Assembly: GCA_973895155.1 (NCBI GenBank) | Contig: OZ316897.1 | Span: 22,171,455-22,235,454 of the forward strand | Source of the DNA: Marsupella aquatica | Taxonomy: Eukaryota; Plantae; Marchantiophyta | Direction of reading: 5' to 3' | DNA length: 64,000 bases | Shown: positions 1-36,060 of the stretch, in pieces | How positions within the stretch are numbered: position 1 is the stretch's first letter | Layout: each line of letters opens with the position of its first letter | Program-made: the position numbers and the translations under genes | The notes under the pieces: generated by a model | What the model saw: the letters and a program-made list of their open reading frames with translations, nothing else | The model's database searches: none | Told to the model about the DNA's origin: nothing

Positions 1-5
1 GGACA

Positions 6-3620: not shown

Positions 3621-3660
3621 GTGTGTTTGCGGGGACGCTGCACACTTAAGTAGGGGGCTA

Positions 3661-6600: not shown

Positions 6601-6849
6601 TTGGAGCGGAGATCCCCCTTGCTGATCCTTGGAGTAGAGGAGAGGGGAAGGGGTGAGTACAAAAGTAGTCAAGGGGACTACCTCTCTAGAAGTGGAGAGT
6701 TGAAACTACTTATGTATGGAGTGATTGGACATTGTAAGCACACTTCAGAAGTTTTGTCAATCCTTTGTGACCCTGGTATGACATGGAGCAGGTATTAGGT
6801 AGTCTTTTGGGGAGAAAAGCCGCTTAAGCTCCTTGGCAAGTGTTTGACA
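3661..6849 (+). repeat. 3' LTR of gypsy copy 1 (~3.2 kb), with internal 24-bp repeats (~4997-5070) and a ~180-bp duplication (~6230-6580)
   Basis: TGT...ACA ends directly after the PPT; the right boundary is inferred because the 5' LTR and TSD are outside the window. Confidence 0.7.
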
Positions 6850-7344
6850 ATTGACATTAGAGTTAGTCATTTATGGCAGAAGTCCATAATGACAATATGT
6901 TGTTGTAAACACTGATACATTCTCATTTTCAGATTGACCCTAAATTTTGTCATTTAACACCGTTGGTTAAAATGACGATAATACATTTTTTGTCATTTAT
7001 CACCGTTGTCCAAAATGATCCAAATAGATTTTTAGTCATTTCAGTCATTGTCAAGAGTGACTATAATGTTGCTAAACACTGATTTATCATTTTTGTTATT
7101 AATTGTGTCATTTAAGACATGTGTCTAAATTGACCATTTAGGGAAATTGGGTCATTTTGGTCGCATCAGTCATTATAGACATTATACAAAATGACGAAAA
7201 AATTAACATTTTGTCATTTCAGTCTATTGGTCATTGTGGACAGTCATTCCCCTGTCATTCTTTTTGTGTCATTAAAACTTTTGGTCATTTATTCATCTCT
7301 GTCATTGGGTGATTGGTCATAAAGGGCCCTGTTTTCTTCTAGTG
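6850..7344. mobile_element. Right end of a CACTA/EnSpm DNA transposon (TIR + subterminal repeats)
   Basis: Ends in ...GGGCCCTGTTTTCTTCTAGTG, i.e. CACTAGAAGAAAACAG on the reverse strand; many GTCATT/AATGAC subterminal motifs in both orientations; cuts off the MTase frame (the ORF tail TRRKQGPL is TIR-derived). Confidence 0.85.
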
Positions 7345-10300
7345 TTCACGACTTCAATAGTGAAAGTCAAAGTCCCCAATGTTCCCAATTGGCCTCCAAT
7401 CGGTGGTTGAATCTCTAGACCTTTGCCGCCTTGCCCTTCAATCTGTGCTTCATCATATAAATTCCAGTTTGACTTTAGAGTCATAATCCGATGTCTCACA
7501 AAATCAATCTGCGCAGCACTTTTATCAACCGCACAACCCTGGCGAGAATTGAGAAGAGCCGCAGCTAACATGGATCCGGTTCCGCAACAAAGATCCATAA
7601 CCCAGTCATTTTTCTCCGAGAAATGAGTAACAAACCAAGCACCCAAACCAACAGGCTTTTGGTACGGGTTCACAACATAGCCCAACGGATCAACAGACTT
7701 TTTGGTTACACATGGAACCTTAATGATATTGATGTGAGACTCATCCGGTTGGAAATTGTACATGTTCATGTTTCGGATGCCTTCCTCGCTGTAGAATCCC
7801 ATCGACCAGTTTTTGAAACCCCACGCCAATCGAGCACCGGCGGGACGCTCATGAATGTTGACCTTCTCCCAAATTCCAGACTCAACCCCACAGTTGCACA
7901 CAATCTCGAGCGCAAACATGACCATATTTGTTCCTGTAATGAATGGATCACAACAAACCTCCACTGCTTAGCAGCTGTCATGTTCGAAAAACTTCTCACT
8001 ATATCTACAACGTCCTTTTCCGTGAAGGACACTTCATCAAACTCCGAACCAGGCGCATTAAAACCATACGGAATGTCGGCAACGGCAAGAGTGTAAGGTT
8101 TTCCCTCCACAAAAGAATCCAAAATTCAAACATCCCCAACATGGAGATAGTAAGAGAAAGAATCTCCGTTAGCATTTTTCCATATTTGCTCCACGACTTC
8201 TCGTGCATCCTCGCCTAGCGTCTGGAGCCGGTTGTACCGATCAATTGCAGCAAGCACAAAATTCTTGAACACATACGGGATGTCAGCGGAGGGAACAATA
8301 ACCTCCCCCGCCGAATTATATTGCACAGGCGGAAGAACTTTATTTTTCCGCTTCGACCCAATCTTCAGCTGTAACAAAGGTCGCACAGAATTCCAATCAG
8401 AATGAAATTGCTTAACGAATATGAAAGCCGTTAAAAATCTTGGGAATGAAACGAGTTATGCAAAAATGTACTGATGGAATGGCAAGGCCGATAAAAATCT
8501 CGCGATGATTTTTGAATGGAACGAGGAATGCAAAAATCTACTAATGGAATGGCAAGGCCGATAAAAATCTCGGGGAGAGACAGGTGCTTACCGCTTCGCT
8601 CAAGTTCTCTGCCCATGTTCCTAGGACGGAAACATCCATCTCATTTGGAAACATTTCTCTGCACGTTGCCCAGTCGGGCTGCCCAGATATTTGCAAGAAT
8701 AATTTCTTCACCTTGGAAAGTTTTTTCAGCTTTTCCCCTTCCTTGTGCATTTGATCCAAGGTGATCACTTTCCCAATGACCCTATTCAAGAGCTGCTTAA
8801 CATGCTCCTTAGTTGACTGTCCTTGAAGACCTCAAAAAGTATTTAAATTGAGGTCACCTGCAAGTTTATTCATTTTAATCTCTTTCAGTGTTAAAGGTTT
8901 AACCTTTCCCTTTGCATTTGTTGTTGCCAAGATCTTTTTGGGTTGTCCCAAGACAGTCCCCTTCTCCCACATCTGGAAAACTTTCTCATGAAGATCCCAA
9001 ATTTCACCCGTTCAAAAAGCAATCTGGAATGTTGGGACATGTTTGGCCATGTTGTCACAAACACCGGGAGTGTATTGCAACATACATTCCTAACAACAAG
9101 CTTTGCGAACATCCTTGTTTGATCCTACATCCATTTCAACAAAGATATTGTGGCACGCACGAACTCTATCGATAAGAGTCATGTTCTTCCTATACTCCTG
9201 GTCATAATTGTGCTGGAAGCCCAACTTCTGGACCTCCGACTTGGTAAGTCTTGCATATACCCAAGCTTCCAGCTCACCATAAATCTGCTTCCCATACATT
9301 TTATACAACTCGGCCTTTGCCCGAGCACCATGATTTCCTCCAGTAATTCTATACTTCCATACTCTGGACTTTAGAATGTCCCAATCCTTGATTGTGGGAC
9401 AATCCTCCGGATCCACACACAGCACAAACGGTGCGCTAAAGTTAGTGGGGTTTTTCCTTAGAAGAATCTTGATATTCTCCACATGCAATTTTTCCACTGG
9501 TCTGATCAAAGTTGACTTCTCTCCAGCTTCATCAAAAATTAAATTGTTGACATGCAATAGGACAGTTGTCCTTTGAACCCTTCGCTGCATCAGCAGACTG
9601 AGCTCCGCTTTGATGGCATCAGTCTCATACATCGAAAGAGCAGTCTCCTCCTCTTCATCAATCTAGAAAATGCCGTTTGAAATTAGATTACGAAAGAAAC
9701 AGCAAGATTTTTATCGGAATCCTCTTTCGTCAATAGAAAATCAAAGTTTGGTAGCACTTACCGATGGAACCTCGGCTTGTATATCTGAACGAGGCAAACG
9801 CTCATCAAGCACCGGAGGCTCCATATTGATCGGGGCTTCCACTCCTTCCGGGGCTGTGGATAAACTCCAGCCTGTTCTCTTTCTCTTAACGCAGACTCCA
9901 GAACCAAATGGCCCCGATCCCTCAGATCCTCTACTCTCGCTTACATTTATGTAAGGCGCTTCCGAAATGCCTAAACCTGCACCGGCTGCACGACCTCGAC
10001 GATTGCCGCTGCCCCTTCTCCCGCCCTTGGAGGGACCAGCAACATCTTCCTTGATGTTCCCTCTCCCTCTCCCTTTCCCCCTCCCCCTTCCCTTCCTCGA
10101 ACCACTTTTGGGCTCGTCCAAAGCCGTACCTCCAGCGCTTTTTGCCGATGAAGCTCCACTCCCGTTAGAACCAGGCCTCTTAATAACTATTTTCCGGATG
10201 GGTCTGAATTCTTCACCTGTGAGCCTCTTGTACTCTGCGTTCACCCTTGGTAGCATGATGAGATCACAATCTTGGACAAACTGGCACACCCAAGCTGGGC

Positions 10301-10360
10301 CCATAAGATTCATTACTTTTGCTGACCTAACTTCCGCGACAAGCGCGTCTTCAGGGTAAC
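7345..10360 (-). pseudogene. Gene A, 3' portion: ParB/Srx-like domain + beta-class N6A/N4C DNA methyltransferase (element Y)
   Basis: ParB-like YRITGGNHGARA; MTase motif IV-like LAVADIPYG, then NPYQKP and motif I-like VMDLCCGTGS (PF01555-type order); phase-0 GT-AG introns at 9663-9761 and 8369-8591 join the ORF pieces in frame; several in-frame TAG/TGA stops and a frameshift near 7930. Confidence 0.85.
8427..8572. repeat. Three copies (60-70 bp spacing) of GCCGATAAAAATCTCG, a variant of the Y palindrome, inside an intron of gene A
   Basis: Copies at ~8427, 8487 and 8557; the last two lie in a ~70-bp tandem duplication. Confidence 0.7.
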
Positions 10361-10385
10361 ATCACCCTATTCATTAAAACTGGAA
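10361..10385 (+). repeat. Left TIR of element X
   Basis: 23/25 match to the reverse complement of 28384-28408. Confidence 0.88.
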
Positions 10386-11073
10386 TTTCTCTAGTCCAAA
10401 AGTTGACGTTTAAATCTATTATTTTACACCCCAAAATTCTATAACTTTGTCCCCAAAATCATACATTTTCGTGGCCAAATGTACACTTTTTAAAGTCTAA
10501 ATTTACAATTGTAATGCTCAAATTATTAAATAACTAAGTTATTAATTATAAATATTATTAATTAAAATATAAACATATACAAATATAGAATAAGACAATA
10601 TAAGTTTGACAATACAATAAATTCAAATGATAACATTAAAAATGACACACTCTAACCAAGGGTCATGAACACGGAACTCCAGGAAAACAAGTGATGTATT
10701 ATAAAATTATAAAACCTATTTTTACAGGGTCGAGATCACATTGACCCCTATATAGGGTCCAGATGGTTCTGACCGGTTGTTGAATGCATATCTGTAAAAA
10801 TCTATATGATGACCATCTCGACCCAAATGGAGGGTTCACATAATTTTGACCCGTTGTTGAATGTATATCTTTAACTTACTATTCTTTCTGTACAGGGTTA
10901 AGACCCGAATAGACTAGCCTTTTTATGAGTATATATCTATAAGTAAAACCCTATTTCTTCAGTAGAGGGTCAAGAACATTTAGACCCAAATGGATGTTAC
11001 GGTAAGCTTCACGCTTTCCTACAAACATATACCCCTAACTAATAATCAGTGTTTGGTGTAGGGTCGAGATCAT

Positions 11074-12333
11074 CTAGACCCAAATCTCATGATCCTCCTC
11101 CCCGCAGAATTCATTTGAGCAAGTAAATCTAGACCCTGACGGGTCATATTTCATATCGCGATTGCAAAAATCCAGAGGCTTTCTATTCCAAAACTTAGTC
11201 GTGAGGTCTCTAGTCCTCAGAACTTCCGAAACAAATGCCAGATGATTGTCTCTATAGGGTCTTGTATACTGATCCCCAATTAATGTCCTTATAAGGTCCT
11301 CGATCGCCTCCTCCGTCAATTCCTCAATTGGTGGCAATTGTTGCACTTCATTCTTGATATCCCAGGAAATTTTGTCCGCTGTAACATCCAAGACTGTATG
11401 GATAACAGTGGGAACCCATACCATACTACCCCACCTCTCCGACAACAGCGCATAAATGGCAGCCTGTTGATCACTATCCGATAAAACATTGATCATAGAC
11501 CACTTTGGTTGATTGATAAATAGGTAGTGTTGAAGATTGAAGGCATGATACAATTTCCTCAGCAGAGGCCACAGTATTTCGGGAAAGAAAGTATCATCCG
11601 TGGAGTGATGCAAAAATGAAGAAGGGAACAACCCACAATTCTCTGGATTTGCAAACGCCTTCATTGGAGAGTCATCAAGGAGGAGTGTATTAGTCTCATC
11701 GTATAATAAACCATAACGTTTCCAAACAACCCTCAAATCCTTCAAAAGAATATTTGCATTTCCGTCGGTGACGTCAGGCCTCTGGATTCCAGTGTCAAAT
11801 GTATCTTCTTGCGTCAGAATAAACTTGAATTGCTCTTGCTCTTCTTGAGTGAAGATCAAATGAATCATTTCATTTGCCCTGGGCTTTCTCGCACAAGTCC
11901 AGATGGCAACATCAAATATAGCAAAAGTTGCGATTAAGAACTCGTGAAGATGGGGACGCTCAACATACATAAAGTTAAATCCTCCACGTCTCCCCCAATG
12001 AACACCCTTGACACTTGTGGCACTTCGGCGCGGAGTTCTAACAGAATCCCAACACATTTTGTTGAGGTCAAGAATCAATAGCTTCCGTCTGATTGGACCG
12101 TGAAGTGGAGGCAAGGGTCCTGCAAACAAGAGACACCTATATTAGAATTGTGTGAGACAGAATAAAGGTAGGCTAGAGATGATCTCAAGCATGAACAGTA
12201 AATGAACAACAGTGCGCGACAAACCTGCAATTGGCAGAAGGGCAGATGTCAAAGAATGTGGAAAGCTTCGGAGACTATTGTCGACGCAATCCACAACTGG
12301 TAATGGCCCGCCTATCTCTGTGAAGGTAGACAT
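11074..12333 (-). CDS. FCP1/SCP (NIF)-like HAD phosphatase-domain protein; exons 12333-12225 and 12119-11074
   Basis: RKLLILDLN, ERPHLHEFL, FDVAIWT, LLKDLRVVW and NTLLLDDSPMKAFANPEN match the NIF fold signature; a phase-1 GT-AG intron (12120-12224) joins the 63-aa and 351-aa ORFs; motif I reads DLN instead of DxD. Confidence 0.8.
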
Positions 12334-12339
12334 AATAAT

Positions 12340-15300
12340 TTAGATGGCTGAATTTGAGGACTGAAGGTAGCTTGGGTTTCAACGTCACTTGCTGAAAGAC
12401 CCAAATTCATCTAGAAGGTTATCTCCTAATTGGTTTTGGATGTCCAAATTGATCCCTCCAGGAAGCGTTTCAACAAGAGCTGGCTCAGACTAGACTGGCA
12501 CTAATTTGAACTTATTTTTCCTATAATCCCTGGAACGCATAATCTTCTCAGCCTGATCTACACTGACTTGTTCGCCTTTTGATGGACCATGAATCCACAC
12601 ATAATGAGTAGCATTAGCTTTGAGAGATTTGTAACCAGTTCTACCAATTTCAACACCAGGTTTCCTAACAAAAGGGAGAATTACGGGGCTTCCAGTAGAA
12701 GAATCTATGAAAACAAGCTTATCCTCTTAAGCGCAAAACATTTGGTCCAAGGGAGAGGACGATGCACCTGCCTCGTCCTGAGGGGGAGTTGTGGCAGGGG
12801 AGCGACAAGCTTTCTTGGTTGAAAGGATCTCATCGAGTCGAGGTGGGCTAGGAATTGGGTGGCTGGCAGCGTCCTGCAAGGTGGTTTCCCAACCAACATC
12901 CAAGTTCGAAGACTGTTGCTCACGTTGTGCATCCTCTGCATGAAATGCGTCCCTCGAAGAAGGTACACCAGGAAGCTCGAGATCATCTCGACCATCATTT
13001 ACCTCATTAAATTTGGGCAATATTTCACCCTCCTCTTCCATGTAGCTTGGGATTTTGGGGCCCTCTATTTTGCGATGCTCCAAATTCTCCGCAAAAACTT
13101 CCTCAGAAACACTCGCCTCAACTGGAGCTGGAATCGAGGCCACTTCTTCCAAAACAGTAAGGGGACCGGCTTCAATGGCCTCAGATGGCAACGACTCTGG
13201 GGGTGGAATATATAAAACATGGCGGTTGTCATGGAGGCTCGCGCATAAGCTTTGATGAATTCCATCTCTTGAGCTGTGTCAGAATAAACAAAACAATCCC
13301 GACCAACAATGACGCAAGCTTTGAGGGTCTGCCCTCCGGAGAAGAAGTCAAGCACTGTGTGACCAGTGCTGGAGAAATAATCAACAAGATGCTTTGTCAT
13401 TCGTATAGGTTTAGCTTTGGGGTTTACAAAGCCCCCTCTCCAACCGACCATCTCATAAGACGGGGCCATCTTCTCCAATACTTCGACATCAACTCCAACT
13501 TCATCCTGCTTCTCTTTCCCTCTTTGTTGATCCTTGCTTTTCCCAGCGGAAGACCTCATCGGTAAGACGGTGAAGTCTTTGTCGTACTTAGCACTGTAAT
13601 TCCAGAACGCATAAAAATCATCGAAGAAAATTTGGGACCAGTCAGGCTCTTCATCACAACAAACTCCCCCAAAAATGATAGTGTCCCGTGCTCCTATGAG
13701 AAAGTCACCTTCCTCCTTGGGTACATCTTCACGGTAGTAACTACCGTACTCGAGCTTAGTGTGGACTTTCTTCTCATGACGGAACTTCTCGAAGGCACTC
13801 TGAATCTGGCCTATTAAAGGGCCCTGACGGACAAAAATAATTGCCAAAAACTCGGTTGAGTTAGACATCTCCACACAATATTCCAACAAGACAAAAATCT
13901 CAGCATCTGTCCACTGATGTTGTCGAATACGACCAAAGTCGACAAGGGCAAGTGCGCACGTATTATGAAAGGGTCCAACTGATTCCGGCTTCATCGTCCT
14001 CATAAGATTGTCGCTTAAAAAACTGCGATAAGGAGTATCCACCATAGCAGGAGTCCCACCAAACGTCTTGCAGTATATCTGCTCAAGCTTCACAATGAGA
14101 CTTTGCAGAAATGGTTCTTTGGCCCTATTTCTCTTTAGGAGATTGGACAGCCAAACCTCCCCAGCGAGCTGTCTCAGTTTTGGCAATTCACCGTGATCTA
14201 AAAATGCTGGCAAAAATTGAGTTAGCTCAAACCAAGTAAGTGAATCGGAAAAATGTTCGGGATACTTTAAAACGTAGTACTCCACAATTTTTTCCCTCAG
14301 CTTTGTCATGACTTTAAACGTGTGGGCCATGTCACTCATTGATTGAACATCAGATTTGTTCGCTGGGTCTTTCTTCAATAGAACCTTCTGATGATGAACG
14401 GCGGTGAACACCTTTAGAATGTCCTCACTACTGAGGTCCCCTTCAAAGCATCTAAACAATGCCGGTGTAATCATTTTTGTTGTCCGGCTTTTCCCATTCG
14501 TTTTTTAACCTAACTCACCAAGTCCATCAGGAAGAAGCCCCTTGACCCAATCGATGCACATTAGTCTCCAAGACTGGAACAGTTTCTCTTCCGAAAACAA
14601 CAACCAAAAAATATTCCTCAGGTCGGATTTTCTAATCGTTATTTTGGCCAAAGCCATGAAATCCTGATCCAAAGATAACAACAAAAGTCTGAGGCTCGAG
14701 ATGGTCTAGAGGTAGAATGAAGAAACTATGTTGAAATTTATTGAAAAAGACTTGAATACAAAAAATTGACCTCGAGGCTCGAGACAATCTCGAGCTAGAA
14801 GTGGATTTGAGTTCAAATATACCTGGAACTTTTGATGATCCATTAGTCTATTGGACCCAATCACGGGTCTCTTCATACGGCCACACTCGTCAAACTGTTG
14901 AGGGCATGGACCATAGTATCAAGAAAATAGGACTCATACTCCATTGTCTTGTTAACTGCATTTGCCCTTTATGAGTGTTGAGCAAGTATTGTTCTTGGAG
15001 TTTTGTCCGAAAGAATTCATGACTTTCGAAGCTGAAGACTCTTGGCGACCTCCTTCAACTTTGCATTGCTCTTAGACCAACCAATGATCCAAACTGCTGC
15101 CTTGGCCAAGTGTTGTCCACTAATTGCAAGGAATTGCACCTTCTTATTCTTCACACCCCACTCGAACTCCTTTCGATCCTCAGGAGTATTATCATAATGG
15201 AGCAACTGCGAACTCTCTCTTGAATACGGAATTAAATCCGCCACAGTTGGTACCATTCCAGGGTTTCTAACCATGGATTTTGCGATCTCCATGGCATGGT

Positions 15301-17787
15301 CCTTATTGAACATCCTATATACCAAAACTGCAGAAGGTGAATCTATACTAGTGACAGGAATGTCAAAAGTTTCATTCATGCCAAATGTGTAATACTCCTC
15401 AATCTCCTTAAGAACTTTGGCTCCTTCTTTAACGCTCTTTTCACCCGGAGCATCTCCTGGAGTGCCATCATCATCGGTATGTGCAATCACACTCGAAGAA
15501 GATGTCGGAATGAGATCTACCTTTACAGGCGCAAACTTTTTCTTAGGCGGAGCCTTCTTCGAAGCGCTTTCAGGTTTCTCAACCCTTTTCCTCTTTTGCA
15601 CCACCTTTGCCTCCTTCTTGTCCGAGCTTGACATCTTATCTCCTGAAGCTCCTGATTTCCCTTTACCTGTTTGTCTCCGATGACACAACACCCACTTCTT
15701 ACACCCTTCCTCGTCAAATTCACCAGCTCCAAAAACAAAATCAGGGGAAATGGATTGAAACTCTCCCACCTTGGAATCTGACATTATTCTCAAAACCTTC
15801 CAAGTGAAAGGAGTCGTGAATTCATTGTCATGATCAAAACCGTATTTCCGGCAATACAAGAATCCAAAAATTATATCTGCCCCAGTCATTTTGGACTCTT
15901 CCAACAGATTACTGGCAGTAAATCCATCGGGGAAGAATCCCATTGGTATCACGCTCAGTTGTTTCCTAGGAGCACATTCAATATTAAGATCGCACGAGTA
16001 GTTCTTGGAGTGAAGCCTAATGAGAGCCCATTTCCCACTCTCATGGTTCTCCACCGTCAAGACCATGTCCTTACCATTACTTGTGACAATGGAAACAACA
16101 GGCCCAAGTAAGCTGCAAACTAGAGGTTCGGTAGATGGAGACCTCGTCTTCAAACAAATAACTGACCCCTCCATCTCCTCAATTTCAGCTAGCTCAATGG
16201 CCCAACAAAATCCTATATCAGTTTGTCCAAGGCACAAAACCTCAAGGGCATGTTCATCTTCAACAATCAAATTGGGCAATCCCAATTTTGCACCTGGAAA
16301 AAATGAAAAATAGACCAATTGTCAGAATCACAGAAACGAGAAATCCCGTAAGAGGCTCGAGACGATCTCGAGCTTCCCTCACCCATTAACATAGTTGAAC
16401 TCAAATAAGTACAAAACCGTTGTTTCATGGCCAGATGTATTTGGGGGGAGGAATTGATTCTAAAATATCATAAACCCACCTACCAATCACCTTTTCGAAC
16501 CCCAATCATCAATGGAAACAAGTTGGAGGGTATTTCACAATCTATAGATGGCAAGCATGGAATACAATGGAAGCTCGAGATGATCTCGACCCTAAATTCA
16601 TGAACAATACTTTAGAAATAGAATACAGGAAGAGTCAATCGTGGCTAAACAGTCAACATTATCTAAATCTTTGCATTGTCATATTTTGTCATAGGAAAAC
16701 ATTGATTCTCAATTATGAGAATCTCCATCGAATACGAACATCATACTCAAAAGTTGACCAAGTTTACGTCTAACACCGACTTCAAAAACTCTCTAACTCG
16801 GGATGATTTCCATGATCAGAATGAGTTGGAGAGTACAGAAGTCGTTGACAGAAGCAAGCTTGGTCAACTTTTGATAGGATGTTGGTTTTCGACAGACGTG
16901 GTCTTCCATACACAAAAAATCTGACAAGGCAAAAATTTAGTACATTGTTGATGAATTGGATATTTTAATACTTGGGTCAAGATGATCTCGACCCAAGTCT
17001 CTAAAAGTTAGAATACAGAGACTCACAATTGGCATTGGTTCACCGTTAACTAAATCTTTGCATTATCATGTTTCTTCACTGAAGACATTGATTCGCAAAT
17101 ATGAGAATGTCGATCGAATACGAACAACATACTCAAAAGTTGTCCAAGTTTACCTCTAGCAAAGGCTTCAAAAACTCTCTAACTCGGGATGATTTCCATG
17201 ATCAGAACAAGTTGGAGAGTACAGAAGTCGTTTTCAGAAGCAAGCTTGGCCGACTTTTGATATGATGTTGGTTTCCAAAGGAGATTGTTTTCCATCGGAA
17301 ATAACAAAACATCCGTCAAATACGAACAACATATTCAATAGGAATCTAAATCTGCCTTTTCCATAATCCCTTTTGGATATGCTGTTAGTATTTGACAGAT
17401 ATAGCATGACAGATACATCAACATGAAAATGACAGAAACCTCTTAACTTTGTGGATATTAGGCTCGAGACGATCTCGAGCCTAATCTCAGTTACAAACGA
17501 TAAACTTGTTCACTTTGAAGCCACCTCTTGAAGCAAAGTAATGCAAAAAATATCAATCGGCTCGAGATGATCTCGACCCTCAAGTGGATCAAAAACCAAG
17601 TATGATTTGAAGCTTGAGATGATCTCGAGCCAAACCTCCATCTAACAATGAGAAAAGATAATATATTACGTTTGATTGTGCGGTGGATGTTCTGCGATGA
17701 ATCTAGAAGGGTCTGAAGCTCCATCGCTACAGTTGATGCGTCGTACTCGGCGAAGTTATCCTTGGAGAAATCTACAACGGTCGACAT
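12340..17787 (-). pseudogene. Gene C: second ParB-like + MTase-like gene with degenerate catalytic motif (element X)
   Basis: ParB-like VQFLAISGQHLAKA in ORF 15017-16318; MTase C-terminal half NPKAKP...FSSTGHTVLDFFSGG in ORF 13065-14474; LALVDFGR at the apparent DPPY position; phase-0 intron 14664-14822; probable first exon from ATG 17787; several stops and frameshifts; both ends approximate. Confidence 0.72.
16570..17290. repeat. ~390-bp tandem duplication, each unit starting at an X palindrome
   Basis: Shared blocks such as TTCAAAAACTCTCTAACTCGGGATGATTTCCATGATCAGAA at ~16781 and ~17167. Confidence 0.8.
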
Positions 17788-17999
17788 GGCTACTGGATAG
17801 TGGATACTAGATCTGGGTGATATAAGAAAAATATTATCTCGAGGCTCACAGGAAAATCTTGATCCAAACGGCTATAAAATATCTTGAGGCTCAAAGGGGA
17901 TCTTGACCCTAAACAAGTCTCGAGGAAAAAATGACGATCTAGAGGCAAAAGCGACGAAATATCTAGAGGCAATAAGCAAGAGGCGAGTGAGGCGCGGAG

Positions 18000-18290
18000 G
18001 GGAGGTAGGCAGGGAGGCGAATGTGCAAATGAGGGTGGCGACGTTGTGAATGTGGACTATAAGCCGCTCGGTCGGCCCTGAGTCAGGCTAGGGTGCCCGG
18101 CGACGGATGCCTGGCCACGTGTAGGATGCCACGCGCCCATGCGTGGGAGTGAATCTTGAGTTGAGTCATGATGACGGTGCTGTCACACGTACTGTCATTA
18201 TTGCGGTCCGTACTTCACCCTGCCGCTAGTTCATCCCTGCCATTGGTTTGACAGAGCCATCTGGTCAGGCAGGATTTTATATATTGCTCG
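18000..18290. promoter_or_regulatory. Probable divergent promoter between gene C (-) and the transposase-like gene (+)
   Basis: GC-rich island with CACGTG (18116) and TATA-like TTTATATA (~18276), followed by a pyrimidine-rich 5' UTR-like tract; the flanking genes point away from it. Confidence 0.4.
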
Positions 18291-18942
18291 TTTTTCCTCC
18301 CCACCGGGTCATTCTTCAGATATCATTTCATTGCTCGCTTCCTGCTCCCCTCATTCTCTCTCTTATCCCTCTTCCTGCCCCTGCCTCTCGCTCCCTGTTC
18401 TCTGGCTCTAGATTTTTTCTCGAATCCCTTTCTCTCTCAGTTGTTTATTTGGTTTTGGAGACATTCTCATTTGAAGCCATGAAGTTGGTCTAAAATAATT
18501 GAACCCATACCTTTTAGAATACCAAACCATTTATGCTTAAAACATTGCCACTCAGAATCCATTTGTGATCCTTTTCTCTTTTTTTTGAAGCTATTTCTCA
18601 TTAGTCTTCTATAAGCCTACTTTATGTATTTCAATGTCAAACTTTTACCTCTAGATCATCTAGAGCTCCTCAATCATAACAACATATTTTTCAATTAGAG
18701 TGCCATTTGTGGCTCGAGATCGTCTCGAGCTTTAGGTATCTTCCTGGGAATTGTCTATTTTTGTTTCTAGCTCCTTTAAATCCACAAGTATTTAAGTATC
18801 TTTCCTTCTCTTGCGTGAGTTCATGCTTCTCTGAGGAGTTATTATGAGCTGTTGTTTCTATGCACTTCATAGTTCTTCTTCTAGGGTGGATTATTGATTG
18901 TTGGAAGTATAGAATTCCCTCTTCATGTGGATTTTATATTCT

Positions 18943-19176
18943 ACCTCGAGATTGTCTCGAGCTGAAGACTTTGTTAATCTATATCTCATGGTTTTTGTGG
19001 TCCATTCTTTACCTCGAGATCGTCTCGAGCTGAAGACTTTGTTAATCTATATCTCGTGGTTTTTGTGGTCCATTCTTTACCTCGAGATTGTCTTGAGCTG
19101 AAGACTTTGTTAGTCTATATCTCGTGGTTTTTGTGGTCCATTCTTTACCTCGAGATCGTCTCGAGCTAAAGACTTC
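18943..19176. repeat. 68-bp tandem repeat (~3.4 copies), each with a CTCGAGA-N3-TCTCGAG palindrome
   Basis: Units start at 18943, 19011, 19079 and 19147. Confidence 0.92.
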
Positions 19177-19260
19177 TTAATCTGTTACTGCTAGTTCAGT
19201 TGGTTTATTTTTGCTAGTCACTTTACCTCAAGATCATCTCGAGGTACAACAGCTTCCTAT

Positions 19261-20480
19261 TTGGAACATCTTTTCCAAATGGGGATATTCTTTCGAGGAG
19301 ACGAGGTTTCCCTCTTACTTGACGGAGTTGAAGTTGCCTCTGGAACAGTCCTTAAGGTTGACCTTGGTGACTCAGTGCGTAACGTTGATTTGGGTATTAA
19401 TCGTATAGGAGTTCTTATTGAGAGGTGCTATGATGGATCTCGAGAAATTCCATTCCCATTGCCACCGATCAGGACACTTTTTGATGTTGTAGACTCCTGC
19501 ATTATTTGGGATGCCTCTTTTGCATATTTGAGGTCACAGTCAACTCCAGTGATGACACAAGTGGATGCTACATGTTCTACAAATGATACATTTCCCAATT
19601 GCTTACCTGAAAAATCTGCGGTGGGAAGTTTGGGAGACTCAATTATGGATGGCAATGAAGTGGAGCTCTCGATTGGAAATCAGATTGTGTGTCAAGGATT
19701 TGTATTCAAGACGAAACCCGATGAGACTTGTCACAATGAAAGACTTGGCCCTGATAGGATTAGTGTGAAGATATGTGAAGTTGTTCAAGGAATGGAGAGG
19801 TTACCCTTTCCGCACGCTGGAGCCGATACCGTTCAGGAAGGATTGGACAGTTTTGTAATCTGGAATTTAAGGAATGTTCATCGGAGGAGTTCTTCCCATG
19901 ATTTACTAGATGAGCCGTCCGCACAGGATGTTTTTGGAAATTATAATTTCAAAGATTATAGTTTGCGTTCGAACTGGATGGCGGAGGAAGTGGAATTGTA
20001 TGTTGATGATAATCGGACCAAGGTCGGGCTTGGCATCATCACATTCCTTTCGAGTCTGGTGCCATTGATGATGAGGTTCTTGGGCCAAATCACGTTGGGG
20101 TTGTTGTCACACACGTGATTGACCCTCAATTTTTCCTGAATATCTCCCCCGGAGTGCCGGGTCTTGTTAGGTGGGCCATCCGTTCACTTGTGCTGATATC
20201 AAGGGGGATTTTTCTTCTGGATCTCATTGGAGAGGTTTCTCCCGAGCCAATTATTGATGGTCGAGATTGTCTAGAGGTAGATATGAATGGTCACACTAAG
20301 TTTTCAAAACGGCCTTATAATTTCATCAAGAGAATGAAGGGAAACCCTGATGAAAAAAGGAAGAAGCACCTGGAGTCGAGGGCAATTCTGAAAATCACAG
20401 AGGAGGAAATTGATTCCATCCAAAGAGAAGGTTGTTGTAAGTTGAAGTGTTGCCTCAACATGCCGAGAGAAGACCTTATG
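19261..20480 (+). pseudogene. 5' part of the element X transposase-like gene: three tandem Tnp1/En-Spm (TnpA C-terminal)-like domains followed by a CCxxxCC segment
   Basis: Repeated EVxL...V(A/C)xGxV...LGxxR(I)xV...LPFP...W units; frameshift near 20070; GCCKLKCCLNMPRE resembles, from memory, the N-terminal region of DUF7869-type bryophyte transposase-like proteins; fused directly to gypsy protease sequence at ~20481. Confidence 0.55.
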
Positions 20481-23400
20481 GGGAGGAGACGTAGAAGAAG
20501 GTTACCCAAAGTTGGGATTGACCCCATACAAGTCAATTGGGTCACAGAGGATTTGGGTGCCCCAGAACTCACAATAGACATCAACGGATGTGCAATACGG
20601 TTTGTACCGATGGATGGTGGTTCGGGAATCAACATCATGACTGAGGAGACAACCAATCAATTGGGGTATACGGAGTTAGAGCCACCGGCACGTGCCATGA
20701 GGCTGGCTGATGGGGCACGGGTGGTGCCGCTGGGGTGTCTCACCAAGATTCCAACAATGATTGGGGGAAAATCTTTTCCCCTCAACTATTTGGTGATGCG
20801 ACCCGTTCGGCCGTACGGTTTTCCCATCTTAATTGGCAGGCCATGGTTGTATCTGGCCAAAGTGACGAGCGATTGGGGCAAACGGCAGTTTCGGTTTGGA
20901 ACCCCCACTATTATCATTCCCTGGTCAGCGGAGTCACCTCAAGGGGAGACTACCTCTATGGAAGAGCAATATGATTCAGAGGTCACCTCAGAGGAAGATG
21001 AGGATGAAGTATACATGGTGAAGCTGATTTCTCATCTAACGGAGGAAGATGTCTTTGGTCCACAAGCTGCTACCTTTGAGGAGGGAATTATGGAAGTACC
21101 ACTTGACCAGAGTTGTGTTGTGCAGAGGAAAACCAAGGAAGAGCCACCTACACCACCCCTGGCCCAGCTTATTGATACTCAAGAGCAGGAACAAACGGAG
21201 GAGGAGGGGCAGGAAGCTCAAGCCATTCTGTTTGACAATGAACGAAGGGAGGAGTGGCTGAATGACCTCTTAGATGAAGAATTTAGAGAGGAGCTACTGT
21301 CACATTACAAAGAATCTGACGTGGAAGAAATGATGGCCCATGTGGCAAAAGACCCACCCCCAACTCGGCCAGACCAGGAGGAGAGTGATGCACCTGTGTA
21401 TGGAGGGATGAGGCTTGCACGGCTGGAGGAGACCTTTGATGAGGAGACACGCAACAAGCTGGACGTGATCAGGCCGGAGCAATACACAAAGGTGGAGGTG
21501 GGTGAAGGCAAGACACTCAACATTGGCAGCAAGTTGGATGCTACGGAGCAACACACCATTCAGAATACCAAGACGTATTTGCGTGGAGCCACCAAGATTT
21601 GAAGGGAGTGCCACCTGAGTTTGGTGAGCATAGCATTGACTTGATGTCAGGAGCCCGGCCGGTGAGGCAACGCCAATACCGTCTCAATCCCAAGTACTCA
21701 CTCATGGTGAAGGAGGAGATTGACCGTTTGTTGGATGCAGGCTTCATTTATCCTGTCATGCACAGTGAGTGGGTATCACCCATCGTGATTGTGCCCAAGA
21801 AGAAAGGGGCAGACGGTAAGGTGAAGATACGGGTGTGCTAAGATTTCCGGAAGCTGAATGACGCCACCAAGAAGGATCACTATCCACTGCTGTTTACTGA
21901 CATTGTGTTAGATATGGTGGCCGGTTGGGAGATTTACAGCTTCCTAGATGGTTACTCTGGATACAATCAAATCTGGATACGGGAGGAGGATCAACTCAAG
22001 ACGGTTTTCACCACGGAGTGGGGGATTTTTGTATTCCGTAGAATGCCTTTTGGGTTGTGCAATGCCCCTGGCATGTTTCAACGACTCATGATGAATATAT
22101 TTCATGACTTTTTACGGAGGTTCTTGGAGATCTTTATTGATGACTTTGCTGTCTACGGCAAACAAATCAAGCACCCTAAACACTTACGGTTGACTTTTCA
22201 GCGGTGCCAGGAGACTTGCTTGAAGCTACATCTTGAAAAATGTTTTTTTGGAATTGAGGAGGGGACCCTATTGGGCCACAAGGTGTCGGCTCGTGGAATT
22301 GAAGTTGATCGTGAGAAGGTAGCCGTGTGGGTAGCAGTCTCGTTTCCCAAAAACGTGAAGGAAGTGAGAGGGTTCTTGGGGTGCGTTGGCTACTACCGCC
22401 GCTTCATCAAGGACTTTGCCAAGGTAGCCATGCCACTCACATCCATGTTGAAGAAGGGAAGTGAATTTGAACCTACTCCTTCCCGTCAAGCTGCTTTTGA
22501 TGAACTAAAGAAACGTTTGCTAGAGGCTCCCGTACTCATCACGCCTAATTGGAATAAGGAGTTTCACGTTTACGTAGACGTATCCGGGTTTTGCATCGGT
22601 GCCGTCTTGAGTCAGTTGGATGAGGATGGGAGGGATCATCCCATCTACTTTGCCAGTAGGCAGTTGGCCCCGGCAGAGAAGAACTACTCACCCACCGATA
22701 GGGAGGCTCTTGGTATCATTTACGCTTGTAAGAAGTATCGTCATTATTTGTTGGGTTACAAGGTTGTGTTCCACACGGATCACAACAGTTTGAAATACAT
22801 GGTTAACAAGCCAGATCTGTCTGGGAGAATTGCACGATGGGTCCTCTTATTACAGGAGTTCAACTATGAGGTGAGGGTGAGATCCGGGAAGAGTCACAGC
22901 AATGCTGACTTCTTCTCCCGTATTGAGGGACCATCTGACTCTCAAGAGATTGATGATCGTTTTCCCGATGAAGAAGTCTTCAAGGTGACTACAGAGGCCA
23001 CTACTTGGTATGGAGAAATTCTTGAATTTCTCCGTACGGCCAGGATTCCATTACGATTGGGTCCGGAACATGCAGCAGTGTTCTTACGTAAGACGGGGCC
23101 CTACTTGCTTGTGAAGGGAGTACTTCACAAATACGGCATGGATGGACGCCTTCGTTGTTGTTTGGAGGAGGCTGAGATACGTACAGTCATGGCGGCACTA
23201 CATGAGGAAGAAGCTGGTGGCCACTTTGCACGGGAAACCACCGCTAGGAAGATACTGGATGCGGGATATTGGTGGCCCACACTTTTCCGGGATGTGCACA
23301 GGTACATCCAGAGATGTGACCCCTGCCAACGCCAAGGCAGACCAGGGCCCTCCTCCCGGCACCCATTGGTGCCCATACTTCCCCTTGCACCATTCGAGAA

Positions 23401-24340
23401 ATGGGGGGTTGATTTCATTGGTCCCTTTACTCCCATTACACGGAGGGGGAGGAAGCGCTATATCATATTGGCCACGGACTATGCCACCAAGTGGGTGGAG
23501 GCCAGGGCAACAGCAAAGGATGATGCCAACACCACTGCACGGTTCTTGTACGAGCAGATTTTCACACGGTTTGGGCCACCCTTGGAGCTTGTGAGTGACA
23601 GGGGTACTCACTTTCTCAATCATACGATTGAGCGTTTGACGGAGAACTACTTGATCTCACATAGGAAAACCACTCCGTACCATCCACGAGCCAATGGGCT
23701 CACAGAGAGAGCAAATGGGATCATGGGCAAGATCCTTAATAAGACGGTATCAGCTCACAAGACAGATTGGGATTTGAAGTTGCTGGCTGCTACGTACGCC
23801 TACAACCTGGCTCACAAGACCACCACTGGCCACAGCCCCTACTTCCTTGTGTTTGGTCAACACTCTCTTGTGCCGGTGGAATTTGAGGTTCCCACCATTC
23901 GAATCTTAACACGAGAAAGGGAAGGGGAAGAAAGTAGTGTAGCTGCACGGATCCAACAGTTGGAGCAACTTACAGAGGTACGAGAGGAGGCTTTGACGAG
24001 CACGGAGCAACAGCAAGGCAAACAGAAGTTACACTACGATTCCCATCTCCGCCGTGTGTCCATTGAGGAGGGAGATTTGGTGCTCCTCTATGACAGTCGT
24101 TTCATGCATTTCCCGGGGAAGCTACATACACGTTGGATGGGGCCCTACATTGTCGATGCAGTCTACTCCAATGGGTCAGTTCAGCTCAAGACGCTGGAAG
24201 GGCAACTACTCAACACATGGATTAATCAAGAACGCCTGAAGAAGTACTACACGGAGGAGGAGTATGGTGCTCGCGGGGGCGCTTCGCAATTAAGAGAGGA
24301 GCTATGTGACGGGGTCCCCGTCTCGAAAGGTCATCATTAG
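20481..24340 (+). pseudogene. pol: pol of gypsy copy 2 (frameshifting deletion at ~21563, TAA at 21839)
   Basis: ORFs 20115-21602 (3' part), 21599-21841 and 21905-24340 are collinear with copy 1 Pol. Confidence 0.92.
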
Positions 24341-27018
24341 GAGTTATTGGCAAGATGCATGTAAATAAATAAGCCAATATACATAATAGTTTTTCAATTT
24401 TTTTTAATTTCTTAAAAGTTAATCATCCCGGTGTGTGTTCATGTTGCTCTGGAGGGCCGGAGCTATTTGAACCCGGGAGGAACTATTTTTTTAATTGACC
24501 TTTTGCTCTCTTGGGTCTTGTCGTTGTGGGAGAAGAAAATTAGGCATCTTAAGGGGATACCACTCATTAATATTTGGAGACCCCGGCAGTTTTTCTTGGC
24601 CCCGGTATAATATGGCAGAGGAGCCCACGAGCCGTGGGGCGCGAGACGGAGGGTCGCCCTGCGAGTAGGCGGAGCCCCGAAAGGGTCTTCCAGGGCGTAA
24701 GCGAGGGGCAGCCGGGAAGGAGGAGCCCACGAGCCATGGGGCGCGAGACGGAGGGTCGCCCCGCGAGTAGGCGGAGCCCCGAAAGGGTATTCCGGGGCGC
24801 AAGCGAGGGGCAGCCGGGAAGGAGGAGCCCGCGAGCCGTGGGGCGCGAGATGGAGGGTCACCCCGCGAGTAGGCGGAGCCCCGAAAGGGTCTTCCGGGGC
24901 GTAAGCGAGGGGCAGCCGGGGAGGAGGAGCCCGCGAGCCGTGGGGCGCGAGACGGAGGGTCGCCCCGCGAGTAGGCGGAGCCCCGAAAGGGTCTGCCGGG
25001 GCGTAAGTGAGGTGGCAGCCGCATGGAAGTTGACTATGGGTAACACGGGGAGGATTGGGAATTCCCTACCCTTTGTTTTTTTTCTTTGGTTTTTTTTTGT
25101 TTCTTTGCTTCCTTCTCCGCGCGTGCAACTCCTTTCTTGGCCGAAGCACTCTGCCCTCATTTCCGAAAGCAATTTCCCCAAAGTCGGAAGCTCTCTACCA
25201 GCTCTTACACTTATTTTCGAAGCTCTTTCTCATGGTCAATTGTTGGGGCTTGTGGGCATGATTCTTCCGGGCATTAGCGGCAGCAGCACGGAGTGGCTTC
25301 TGAGGGAATTGAGGGTAATTGATTGATCGGGATACGGGGGCCGTTTCGGGCCAGGGGATTGACATTGCTACGGGTGACGGGATTTGGTGATTGAGGATTT
25401 GATTTCTGGATGCATGGATGCTGGATCAACCGGAGTTTAGTGCGGCACGCGTTCGGAGATACAAGGCTGCTTACCGTGACTACATTGAGACATTGATTGC
25501 AAGAGCTTAGAGAAGAAGCTCAGGGAGGTACATAAATCGTTACGAGAAGCTCAGGTCAACACGGGGATCCCGGGGATGCCACCCCGATCTGTCACCCCTG
25601 GGACTCCCATGGCCACCGGGCAAGTTTTACCGTTGGAGTTGTGGTCCAGTGAAGAGGCGGCCTTATGGAAGGACACCATTGGTGACGGGTACATTAAGGC
25701 GTGGCAAGCCTTGGCCAATTTGAGGAAGCAGGGGAGCACTAGCACAAGGAGTACCCCGGTGAAGAAGAAGAGGAGTGAAGTGGCACTCACTCCAGTGGAG
25801 AGTGATGAGGAGGCCCACTCACGGGGCTCAAGCCAAGGCACCGTGAGTGAAGAGGAGGAGGATTAGAGTGGTCGTACGGACGTGGTTGTACGGCCCCTTG
25901 ACTTTTCAACTTTTTTGTGAGGGGTCACTCACGGGCTTGTTGGAAAGAGCTCGCGGAGCTGATTCCAACAAGAGGCGGCGCTCCTCAAACGGAGCCAGGA
26001 TGAGCAGGTTAGGGCCCGACGAAGTTGGGTTTATGGGATACTAAAACGGCCATAACTTGGTCCTCCGATGTCCGTTTCAAGAGCGGTTGAGTGATTCATG
26101 ATCAGGGGGAGCAAGGCTACCCAGGGGTGAGCTCAGAGGTGAAATCATAGTGACACCTAGTTTTGGCAATTGTGGGGTCCCTTGCATTTTCACGGTTCAC
26201 GGAGCGACGTTGGGGCGCCGTCGAAGGCACCGTCGGCCCCATTTTTAGTTTAGGGTTTTAGGAGCATGTGTGTGCCGCATGCTTTAGGATTAGGGATTCC
26301 TCATGGACGGTTTTAGCGGCGCCGCTAGGTAGCCGCCACCTTTGTGACCCCGTGAGGGGGCTTTGGTGTGTTTGTTTCTAGTATTTAGGGGGAGAGCCCC
26401 GGAGTAGTGAGGGGGGAACTCAGCGTAGTGCTTTGATGCTTTTGAGTAGCTTTTGTGAGTAGCGCACCGATTAGGTGAAGTTCAAGCCAGAGTAGTGAGG
26501 TGGAGAACGTAGCACTTGTCCTAGGGAGGCAGGAGTTGGGCAGACGGCAGGAGGCCGGATTGCCCTTGCATGTGTTACGGGAAACACCAAGAGATATGGA
26601 TTTGGCTTGAGGTTCCAATATTTTGTGTGTCACTTGTTGTTGCTTGTGTTGTTTGTTTTCCTCCCCTAGTGCATGTGGTCGGTTTCGTTATGGAAACATT
26701 TGCCCTTGTCACTAGTGTTCAAACCTTATTGTAAACGTTTGTATGCTTGCCCATGAGAGGGGGGTGGTGACAGCACTCACCCGATGGGCATGAGTTGTAG
26801 ATGGTAGGACCAGTCCCTTGGACTTGATCAAAAACGGAGAGACCAGTCGGTAGACTTGATCAAAAAGTACACTTCTGGGAGTGGAATCAAACATACTCAT
26901 CCTTAGGTATGAAAATCCTTCAAATAGCGTCCCTCCACGACCCCGTAATACGATACCAACGGTTTAAGCGAAGAAAAGTACGATTTGCACGTATTAATCG
27001 TTGGATAGGCAAGTGATA
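24305..27018 (+). repeat. 3' LTR of gypsy copy 2 (2714 bp) with an internally deleted LTR-ORF remnant (~25434-25866)
   Basis: Homologous to 38884-43223; MPPRSVTPGTPMATGQVLPLEL... is shared with the 617-aa ORF. Confidence 0.88.
24619..25010 (+). repeat. 102-bp GC-rich tandem repeat (~3.9 copies) in the LTR
   Basis: AGGAGCCC starts at 24619, 24721, 24823 and 24925. Confidence 0.92.
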
Positions 27019-27022
27019 ATAG

Positions 27023-27688
27023 TTGGCATTGACATATGAGTTTTGGCCAAAAACCAACCACGGAACTGGTTACAAGGTGAATAGTACAGGAACCTCTGAA
27101 CCATTGGGGGAACCTAGTAGTAGTACACAGAATCCAGAAATGGTGGAGCTTCAGAATGAGTACCTTGAAGAGATGGAGGATCAAACTGCACCATTTGTTG
27201 GCACTCGACACGAGCAAGAACTTGCCCGTTGGATTCCTCTCCAGGACATTCAAGAGGGCCACTTTGTATTTCTTCGTCCAGAGGATGAATGGGAAAAGAA
27301 GAATGGCAAAGAACTTTTTTGGTTGGTGAGAGCTTTGGGTGTTGTGGACCCAAACCATGAAATCCCTTCAGGAGACTTGCAATGCAATAACAATATTTCT
27401 ACTAGTACAAGGTATGCTCCTATGTTCCAAGTGCAATGGTGGAGGCCTAAACATGGTAAACATGATGCACCGGATCATGTGCGATATTCACGTTGCTTTC
27501 AGACCACTAAGACTTGGGAGATGGATCCTGGGTTTGATAGTGTCACTGAACGTTGGCAATTTGCTAATTCTACTATGTATGGATTCAAGTCACGCTCTAG
27601 AGAAGAAAATATAATTGATAGAGGTTTGACCATTCCCAAGAATGTTTTGAAAACACTCAAAACCTACATGGAAGGGATTGTTCATTAA
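27023..27688 (+). pseudogene. 3' part of the element X transposase-like gene
   Basis: FWP...IQEGHFVFLRP...FWLVRA...FQVQWWRP resembles, from memory, the C-terminal domain of DUF7869-type bryophyte proteins; same strand as 19261-20480 and resumes right after the LTR end. Confidence 0.5.
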
Positions 27689-28383
27689 GTCAAATTAAAG
27701 TTTTCTAGTAGTCAGAGTGAGGGAGTCTAAGTATGTCAATTGGTTTGTAATGTCTTAGTTTACGTACTAGTTGGTTACTAGTGAATCTAAGTAACTTTTA
27801 TAATATTTTGGGAGACTAGTTTGAATAGGTGGGCAGGAGGTATTAATTGGACTTGGCCGGATACCTTTATATTAATTGCTTTAATTATAATTACATAATA
27901 CTATCTGACTATATTACAAGAAGTAATATTCGTGATGGGATGTGACTGCCTCTAGTAAACCTTAGTTTCAACTCGAGTTGCTTACTGTAGAATGTACTAA
28001 CAAATTAGTTAGTTACTTGAATTAATATGGATAGATACCATTCTGACAAGTTTATAAATTAATGCTTTCATTTATTACGTAGAAGGTTTAGCTAGGGTCG
28101 AGATCATATTGAAGTTAGCTTTAGTTATATTATATTACTTACTTACTAGTTAGTCAGATTGAATCAATTTTCTACTTCTTATCCAACATATTTTACATTA
28201 TTATCACCCAAATGTTTTTCTTTAGAATCCAAATTAATATTTCATTTTCCCCTATATACAATCTTGATTCCCCAAATGTACATGATCTTGTGCCCAAATA
28301 TACAACTTTCACTGCCCAAATGTACAATTCTTGTACCCAAAAGTATATATTTTGGTGCCCAAATGTCCAAAGATCAAAGAATT

Positions 28384-28408
28384 TTCCAGTTTTAATGAAT
28401 AGACTGAT
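28384..28408 (-). repeat. Right TIR of element X
   Basis: Reverse complement matches 10361-10385; followed by TSD TAAC. Confidence 0.88.
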
Positions 28409-28790
28409 TAACTCTCAAGGGATTTCTCAAGAAAGTTCTCCATGGTGACAATGACAGAGGTGAATCCCTTGCCTCCACACATTGTCAAGAAACTCAGACC
28501 CTCTTTCAACACTTTTGCCTCTCCCTGGCTAATCAAGTACTCACAGATCGCCACACCAACAACGGGGCCAAACGAGAGAGTAACCTTTGCGGATTTTTGC
28601 ATCTGGACATAAAGGATAGGAGACTCACAGTCTGCCATATCCTTGGATTGTAACCTGGTGTTGCGGAGTACCACTGTTTCTTGATGAACTTGACCTCTTC
28701 ACAAATGTCTTTGCTTGTCCAAATCGCGTTCGTGAGGCTTGTCATGAGACTTTCAGCCTCGGCAGATCCACCCTTCCCACTAGGACCCAT
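28409..28790 (-). pseudogene. Gene A, 5' portion (probable start MGPSGKGG..., frameshift near 28650)
   Basis: ORF 28408-28674 joins in frame to the sequence below 10360 once X and one TSD copy are removed; a TTTTCAG acceptor lies just upstream of ATG 28790. Confidence 0.7.
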
Positions 28791-29128
28791 GATGACAAAG
28801 TCTGAAAATTTGAATGCAAGGAGCAATAAATTTATCGCTCTGACAAACCCAAAAACCAAAAACCGGCATGCAAACATCGATACAATGAACTCAAAAAGTC
28901 CTCATTCACGTACAAGCATTAGGTCATTCCACGAGCGATACCAACTCCGATAAAATTATCGCAAACAAATATGAGCACGATATAAATTGACGGCCGAGAT
29001 TACATTATCGTACGTGTCAACATCTAAAAATGAGACCAACACCAATAAAATTATCGCAAAAGTGGTCCAAACAAAAAGTGAGCCTTCTTTAAATTGACAA
29101 CCGAGTGTACATGTGATAATGTGCCTAA

Positions 29129-34322: not shown

Positions 34323-34799
34323 GATATGCGTTATTATAAAATGGTTTGCTACCAGCCTGCAAATCTTTAAAATTAGTGATTCATCCAGCTTCCTTAGCTG
34401 GTCCATCAGGGCACCATCCCCCCATTTCGGAGGATCCACAAAGGGTACAAAAATGCGTCGCTCGAGCATGACCTGATCAGCGAATAGAAATCAGGAATAC
34501 ATTTTGGAGAACATACTCATTACAATTCTACAAGTTTCATTCAACTTTATAGTACCTTGTATAACGGGCTGTGAAGCCAATGCACTTGTTAGCTAATTGT
34601 CTGTAGAAGCGCAAAAAACTACACTCTGGACCACACAACCCGAAGTCAGGCGAGGCAGGGTCATTTATATTCAAAGTGTTTTTTTACAAGCTCTTCTCGA
34701 GCAAACCTTAGATCACCCAAAACAATTGACTACTAAATTGACCAGAGGAATGAGGAGTGCGATAAATTTATCGAATGTTCGCAGCAATGCCTCATCCAC

Positions 34800-35872: not shown

Positions 35873-36060
35873 TTGTCACTATACCTTTGATCCACCAAGT
35901 CCAATCGACCTTTCGTTGTGCCTCCTAAACCCTGCAGCACTGCGACATCATAGAGGAAGATGAGTCTCCAAACAAAACAGAGGAAGATGAGTCTCACAGG
36001 AGGGTGCGATAACTTTATCGCACCTCGCATTCATCTTGAAGACATGACTCCCTCACACAC

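Follow-up and report, generated by a model that had tools for sequence, protein, structure and literature searches.

A core-deleted Sola1-like transposon in the liverwort Marsupella aquatica, with an accessory protein predicted to bind the element's own palindromes

The interrupted locus and the ends of the element

We analyzed a stretch of 64,000 nucleotides from the liverwort Marsupella aquatica (contig OZ316897.1, positions 22,171,455 to 22,235,454), hereafter the window, in which an element of 18,048 bp lies at 10361-28408. It interrupts a minus-strand host gene that is itself part of another repeat (7317-10360, resuming at 28409-28800). From left to right the element carries a phosphatase-like open reading frame (ORF) and a long accessory gene on the minus strand, a divergent intergenic region, and the two outer parts of a transposase gene on the plus strand, with a fragment of a Ty3/gypsy retrotransposon between them. 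It represents a genuine large cut-and-paste transposon in a damaged copy.

The element ends in terminal inverted repeats (TIRs) of 25 bp; the left one (10361-10385, plus strand) starts with ATCA and the right one (28384-28408, minus strand), found as its inverted-repeat match, finishes in TGAT, with 23 of 25 positions complementary (92%). The target site duplication (TSD) TAAC is present on both sides, at 10357-10360 and 28409-28412. When the element and one TAAC are taken out, 28408-28698 and 9741-10361 join into a single open minus-strand frame. The first-pass annotation of this DNA had claimed these repeats, the duplication and the restored host frame, together with a length of about 11.5 kb without the nested gypsy, and our data bear it out on each; the length comes to 11,520 bp after 20491-27018 is taken out.

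We then used contigs from public sequencing runs, of which 5 of the 6 listed contained some of the left part of the element. An empty site, joining 10356 directly to 28409, was found in contigs of 4/4 runs, and the 18,052 bp that it skips correspond to 18,048 + 4. Because the host is itself repetitive, this site may be a paralogous empty copy, not an allele. Other contigs pass through the left end into the flanks of other insertions, which begin at 10361 in 4/4 runs. Among the 35 such loose-end contigs listed, 27 break exactly at 10361, seven at 10358-10360 and one at 10347; agreement between their flanks is low (0.45-0.58), and the one to three extra letters in the seven are at about chance level. 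Since the contigs enter unrelated flanks exactly at 10361 with so little mutual agreement, the family has many insertions and its terminus is ATCA. With the left terminus fixed at this position, and given a symmetric right end, the duplication at this locus is 4 bp, a length taken from one copy, with paired ends seen at this locus only.

The locus sequence by itself would also permit a 3-bp TAA duplication of the Harbinger type with a left end of C-ATCA, and the breakpoints at 10361 rule this out. CMC (EnSpm/Chapaev) elements end in CA...TG. The first-pass annotation had named such ends in other copies as the finding that would count against it; they were not seen, and the 27 of 35 contigs that break at the A of ATCA rule them out. 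Thus its proposal of a large, multi-copy cut-and-paste family with 4-bp TSDs and ATCA ends, not of the CMC type, is upheld by the empty site and the loose-end contigs. Where several contigs cover one flank, the consensuses finish in ATAG, AAAT, TAAA and TTAG (agreement again 0.45-0.58), which are AT-rich and not clearly AWWT. In metagenome contigs the TIR pattern had no match, and a search for the transposase locus gave 142 pattern matches, none of them confirmed.

The loose-end contigs also show several sub-terminal variants, and summed contig depth, which we did not take as copy number, is many times higher over the genes (11168-16239 and 19410-20480) than over the intergenic 16240-19409. 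This pattern suggests several diverged subfamilies with a common TIR. The contigs cover the cargo genes as deeply as they cover the transposase.

Transposase remnants and superfamily placement

The N-terminal part of the transposase (19279-20480, plus strand) contains repeated barrel domains and a Cys-rich CCxxxCC motif, matches amino acids 1-438 of the relative P0005, and bears a single frameshift near 20050-20100. The C-terminal part (27023-27688, plus strand) shows 62-63% identity to the DUF7869 proteins P0001 and P0002 (Calypogeia fissa), and 51-63% identity to four DUF7869 proteins, one of them from Calypogeia fissa. A profile search recovered 31 longer relatives, 15 of them named Riccia sorocarpa. 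P0005 has 1,250 amino acids, and the window matches residues 1-438 and 1046-1246 with nothing between, which agrees with the earlier claim that the transposase core is deleted and that the full element was longer. Given that about 600 codons are lost from the 11,520-bp remainder, we infer an intact element of about 13 kb. The nested Ty3/gypsy fragment (20491-27018, plus strand) retains a protease region, reverse transcriptase, RNase H, integrase and a 3' part, as identified with Pfam, its boundary being set by a second copy at 37615-43219. It is truncated, its 5' end having gone along with the transposase core, and the simplest history of the loss is a gypsy insertion followed by a deletion.

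Because the core is missing from this copy, we investigated it in the relatives. HDxMD, QxDNxxKxNKN and GHTHExVD are near-invariant in them, and a CxxC is also kept; HDxMD, QxDN and GHTHExVD contain the candidate Asp residues of a DDD triad. In a model of P0008 (pLDDT 80), residues 500-760 or so align to integrases and Mos1 with Z scores of 7-8, consistent with an RNase H fold. A comparison by eye with the Sola2 alignment (PMC3627910, supplement S10) showed that the D-x6-KN and H-x5-D spacings are equal, whereas the context of the first Asp is unlike that of Sola2 and the remaining Sola2 motifs of that alignment are not there: DF(S/A)ENY and SHGKxxCDG are not found in the relatives, which have HDxMD and GHTHExVD instead. 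DUF7869 is the only family that the relatives match, none of the CMC families in Pfam being among their matches. A search of PDB sequences with the transposase profile was negative.

At the N-terminus (19279-20100; amino acids 22-114 of the P0008 model), repeated SH3-like barrels gave weak matches to Tudor, KOW and PWWP domains (Z about 6-7), which are leads only; these barrels could possibly be chromatin-reading domains used for targeting. Two distant DUF7869 transposases, P0031 and P0034, are joined to a PhyH-type 2-oxoglutarate (2OG) oxygenase or to a UCH fragment, and these are possibly other accessory modules or annotation fusions.

Sola elements are described as having a DDD enzyme, a 4-bp TSD and variable ends, and as occurring in Physcomitrella (PMC10741241, PMC9033089). 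The present element has a 4-bp TSD at its one characterized copy (18,048 + 4 bp skipped, left terminus at 10361), its TIR of 25 bp lies within the reported range of 11-1,124 bp with variable termini (PMC10741241), and the DDD triad is found in its relatives, this copy having lost the core. Ginger and GingerRoot elements end in TG...CA or TA...TA (PMC6839031), neither of which this element has, and as for their integrase-like transposase, the integrase in the window is that of the nested gypsy. Taken together, these comparisons suggest that the remnants belong to the DUF7869 family and that the element can be classified as Sola, most likely Sola1, and not as a new superfamily. The first-pass annotation was therefore right in its Sola lead, drawn from the 4-bp TSD with Chapaev as the other option, and too cautious in calling the family poorly classified. 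Nor are the ATCA termini, which it called unusual, anomalous, because Sola termini are very variable (PMC10741241) and a giant algal element, Sola1-1_Ec32, also starts with A (PMC12477816).

Several points weigh against this placement. It is made by exclusion and analogy, and TAAC does not fit AWWT, which is quoted with AWDT as a hallmark of Sola1 targets (PMC3845634). Structural similarity supports the fold of the core only moderately (Z about 8), and a Foldseek search with the transposase model gave no match at E<=0.001. We nevertheless regard the identity and anatomy of the element as highly likely to be correct.

Cargo genes, palindromes and the host repeat

The accessory gene (12387-16321, minus strand) is about 1,300 codons long and broken by stops and frameshifts. 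The pieces belong to one gene, because they are collinear with the single proteins P0116 (1,009 amino acids) and P0036 (901 amino acids). It encodes, in order, an uncharacterized N-terminal part, a probable ParB-like domain, a helical linker, a methyltransferase fold, a low-complexity stretch and a conserved C-terminal domain. Two of the stops and a break near 14901 are absent from most of the contig depth. When the piece at 13068-14504 was used as a phmmer query, 78 relatives were found at E<=0.001; 24 representatives were looked up, and those with a named source belong to Riccia and Calypogeia. A word-based homolog search with the methylase ORF gave no match, unlike the full phmmer scan.

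The region 13236-14030 (minus strand) has a beta-class amino-methyltransferase fold according to profile and model, with DFFSGG at motif I and DFxR at the inferred motif IV. The accessory profile matches M.RsrI (E 2.5e-11). The fold was modelled on the relative P0116, not on this broken copy; the model is confident over the methylase region, shows the permuted amino-methyltransferase arrangement, and aligns to CcrM over 221 residues (Z 17.9, root-mean-square deviation 3.6) as well as to PvuII (Z 15.9), rotifer N4CMT (Z 15.6) and RsrI, all at Z 15-18. At motif I, 25 of 32 rows show DFFS, and DFFSG(G) is one residue shorter than the DFFAGSG of M.RsrI, so that the loop for binding S-adenosylmethionine (SAM) appears, from sequence, to be largely retained. 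In contrast, the catalytic motif (D/N/S)PP(Y/F) was not found at the inferred position of motif IV: PPY occurs in none of 27 aligned rows (one misaligned row of 28 was dropped), and an Asp occurs in all 27. Replacement of SPPY abolishes the activity of rotifer N4CMT (PMC8885841), and inactive amino-methylase domains are known in DIRS1 retrotransposons (PMC4738411). These results suggest that the methyltransferase fold, as modelled, is probably a pseudo-enzyme that could bind SAM and is inactive.

The region 14900-15460 (minus strand) is a probable ParB/Srx-like domain, conserved in P0116 and P0078; we take it to be one from its ISGQH motif, and no search confirmed the label. A match to Crov588 in the ParB tests proved to be a repeat artefact.

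The third component is an FCP1/NIF (HAD) phosphatase-like ORF of 355 amino acids, stop to stop (11074-12141, minus strand; Pfam NIF, E 1.7e-17). In Riccia, R1sor_016354 (P0099) is annotated as one protein with a methylase-like domain and an FCP1/NIF phosphatase, and thus NIF cargo is common to liverwort lineages. We also noticed that R1sor_018196, a transposase, and R1sor_018197, a methylase-like protein, are numbered consecutively, in locus tag and in accession, on one contig, where about 0.01 such pairs would be expected by chance among the 16 x 8 tags listed. The first-pass annotation had proposed chromatin- or transcription-related cargo. Cargo is indeed present, but that description was too vague and did not identify the conserved accessory module, which comprises the probable ParB-like domain, the amino-methyltransferase fold, the NIF phosphatase and an associated set of palindromes.

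These palindromes have the 17-bp form CTCGAGAT-N-ATCTCGAG. At <=2 mismatches we counted 19 matches, against a mean of 0.11 in shuffled sequence; at <=3 mismatches there are 21, all of them in the element outside the gypsy, and the 45,952 bp of the window beyond the element contain none. A pattern scan placed 13 of the 21 in the divergent intergenic region (16322-19278), which also holds a 68-bp tandem repeat, and two lie near the ends, at 10729 and 28097, about 370 and 310 bp from the termini. Because the pattern was derived from these very copies, their confinement to the element is the meaningful control. The tetranucleotide TCGA occurs at 6.3/kb in the left part of the element vs 0.9-2.5/kb elsewhere.

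The host repeat spans 7317-10360 and 28409 to about 46300, and its interrupted gene also encodes ParB-like and amino-methyltransferase-like regions (ParB-like, 9090-9662; DIPY region, 7766-8125; motif I, DLCCGTGS, 7317-7967). It has a palindrome of its own, CGATAAATTTATCG, unlike that of the element; its 19 occurrences extend from 8489 to 46230 and take in a 56-bp tandem array at 36004-36449. Within the repeat we found no TIR pair, no transposase and no DUF7869 match, and none of 35 small ORFs on the right side matched Pfam. Judging from its motifs, the host repeat may be a catalytically competent counterpart of the element.

The rest of the window contains further features. At 44248-45809, a 24-bp unit forms two arrays that are inverted relative to each other and separated by about 1.26 kb; together they probably represent a small non-autonomous TIR element. 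An intronless short-chain dehydrogenase ORF at 54678-55925 (minus strand; Pfam adh_short, E 1.6e-21) has a GC content above that of its flanks and is possibly a horizontally acquired gene, and a two-exon germin-like cupin gene (Pfam Cupin_1) lies at 61450-62350 (minus strand). Pieces of long terminal repeat retrotransposons occupy 1-6870, 29770-34500 and 37615-43219; two of them are gypsy copies akin to the nested fragment, and a long uncharacterized coiled-coil ORF lies at 30226-33414.

A possible role for the accessory protein

The closest published design that we found is Sola1-1_Ec32 of the brown alga Ectocarpus (PMC12477816), a giant Sola-1 element of 21.5 kb with a 4-bp TSD, noted as biased to end in A, an A-starting terminus, and an opposite-strand gene for a protein of 1,104 amino acids with ParB-like and N4/N6 methyltransferase domains. 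It differs in its 282-bp TIR and AACCG ends (25 bp and ATCA here), and its available description, on which the likeness is drawn, mentions neither a NIF phosphatase nor a set of palindromes nor a loss of catalysis. By this analogy the design of our element matches that of Sola1-1_Ec32, and the combination of ParB with a methylase is already known from algae. Sola1 of Physcomitrella and the Sola superfamily likewise have a DDD transposase, a 4-bp TSD and variable termini, some elements exceed 15 kb and occur in a moss, whereas their targets are AWWT/AWDT, not TAAC, and the available text does not mention an accessory gene (PMC10741241, PMC9033089, PMC3845634). Plavaka elements of the EnSpm superfamily offer another precedent (bioRxiv 10.1101/2025.02.11.637652): PAG3 of Bostrychia has inverted-repeat arrays beside a ParB gene, although PAG2/PAG3 encode ParB and the methylase separately, the former fused to a 2OG oxygenase and the latter to a SET domain. 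Marchantia MpDN4MT1 (bioRxiv 10.1101/2021.02.12.428880) and rotifer N4CMT (PMC8885841) resemble the accessory protein at the level of a bacterial-type beta-class fold in a eukaryote; unlike it, they are host genes with an intact SPPY and demonstrated N4-methylcytosine (4mC) activity. Finally, VANC of VANDAL elements, an accessory protein acting on its own element, provides a working analogy (cited in bioRxiv 10.1101/2025.02.11.637652), although it is an unrelated protein of the Mutator superfamily, with a function shown there and predicted here. According to the same source, VANDAL is the only case in which a transposon is functionally known to bind and modify its own DNA.

On balance we favor the reading that this is a core-deleted Sola1-like element whose accessory protein, lacking the catalytic motif, is predicted to bind the element's own palindromes and not to methylate DNA. 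From the anatomy of the element, a DDD transposase supplied in trans by intact copies would cut at the ATCA ends and insert at AT-rich targets, the core of this copy having been taken out by gypsy insertion and deletion. The ParB-like domain would load on the cluster of parS-like palindromes in the divergent promoter region, and the SAM-binding, probably inactive methyltransferase fold would grip or mask them. We tentatively propose that the protein, loaded on these palindromes, serves as a shield or activator without catalysis. Perhaps together with the NIF phosphatase, it might maintain expression of the element or protect it from silencing by the host, as VANC does for VANDAL; this anti-silencing role, suggested by analogy, is tentative to a similar degree.

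Several observations weigh against this reading. Motif IV was placed by the strand order of the model and a weak alignment to the DIPY region of the host gene (E 0.14), without a residue-level structural alignment. The ParB assignment relies on the ISGQH motif and the algal precedent; library sequence and fold searches with 14900-15460 gave no match, and pLDDT is below 50 across most of this region of the model. The palindrome pattern was built on the copies within the element itself, and only one of the 8 named Riccia methylase-like tags adjoins any of the 16 named transposase tags among the matches listed.

The accessory protein might instead be an active amino-methyltransferase with a non-canonical site that writes 4mC or N6-methyladenine (6mA) on TCGA-rich palindromes. 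The full beta-class fold of the model, the SAM-binding motif and the motif-IV Asp, kept across relatives of only 20-47% identity, and the high density of TCGA in the left part of the element, this being a target of bacterial relatives of rotifer N4CMT, are consistent with such an enzyme. Given the lack of PPY in all 27 aligned sequences, the loss of activity of the rotifer enzyme without SPPY (PMC8885841) and the precedent of the dead DIRS1 domains (PMC4738411), we consider it unlikely.

It is less probable still that the palindromes are binding sites of the transposase, serving as internal enhancers of transposition or in autoregulation, with an unrelated role for the accessory gene. Many transposases bind subterminal motifs, and the palindromes at 10729 and 28097 are in such positions; however, the 13 in the central intergenic region are far from the ends, and a separate set of palindromes accompanies the related accessory gene of the host repeat, in which no DUF7869 match was found. 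A third alternative, that the element is of the Chapaev/EnSpm (CMC) type or represents a new superfamily and took up host genes passively (Pack-type), is consistent with the 4-bp TSD and the Cys-rich transposase, and red-algal CMC Plavaka elements carry similar accessory genes (bioRxiv 10.1101/2025.02.11.637652). This last explanation is very improbable, since the terminus is ATCA and not CA, the relatives match DUF7869 and no CMC Pfam family, and the cargo, itself conserved, shows linkage to the transposase in Riccia.

We found no paper on this design in land plants, on family-wide loss of the catalytic motif, or on a NIF partner, in a literature search that lay outside most subscription journals and Repbase Reports. 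The element is probably a land-plant, pseudo-enzyme version of the algal-type Sola1 design. So far, an accessory gene combining ParB and methylase has been suggested in elements of algae, which are difficult to study genetically, and liverworts are plants with established 4mC. The liverwort-like occurrence, an explicit 17-bp candidate binding site, the family-wide motif loss and a neighboring lineage with a DPPY-like motif therefore make the question testable in Marchantia. A broader scenario, which is speculative and which we would not expect to hold in full, is that liverwort genomes contain several lineages of giant DNA transposons that each possess their own ParB-parS-like system together with an amino-methylase of bacterial type; the methylase of this lineage would now be a dead reader or shield of its own palindromes, and the host-repeat lineage, with its DIPY, may still write 4mC or 6mA. 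If true, land plants would have a second anti-silencing system that targets its own element, VANDAL being the first, and the liverwort sperm 4mC methyltransferase might have originated from such a mobile reservoir.

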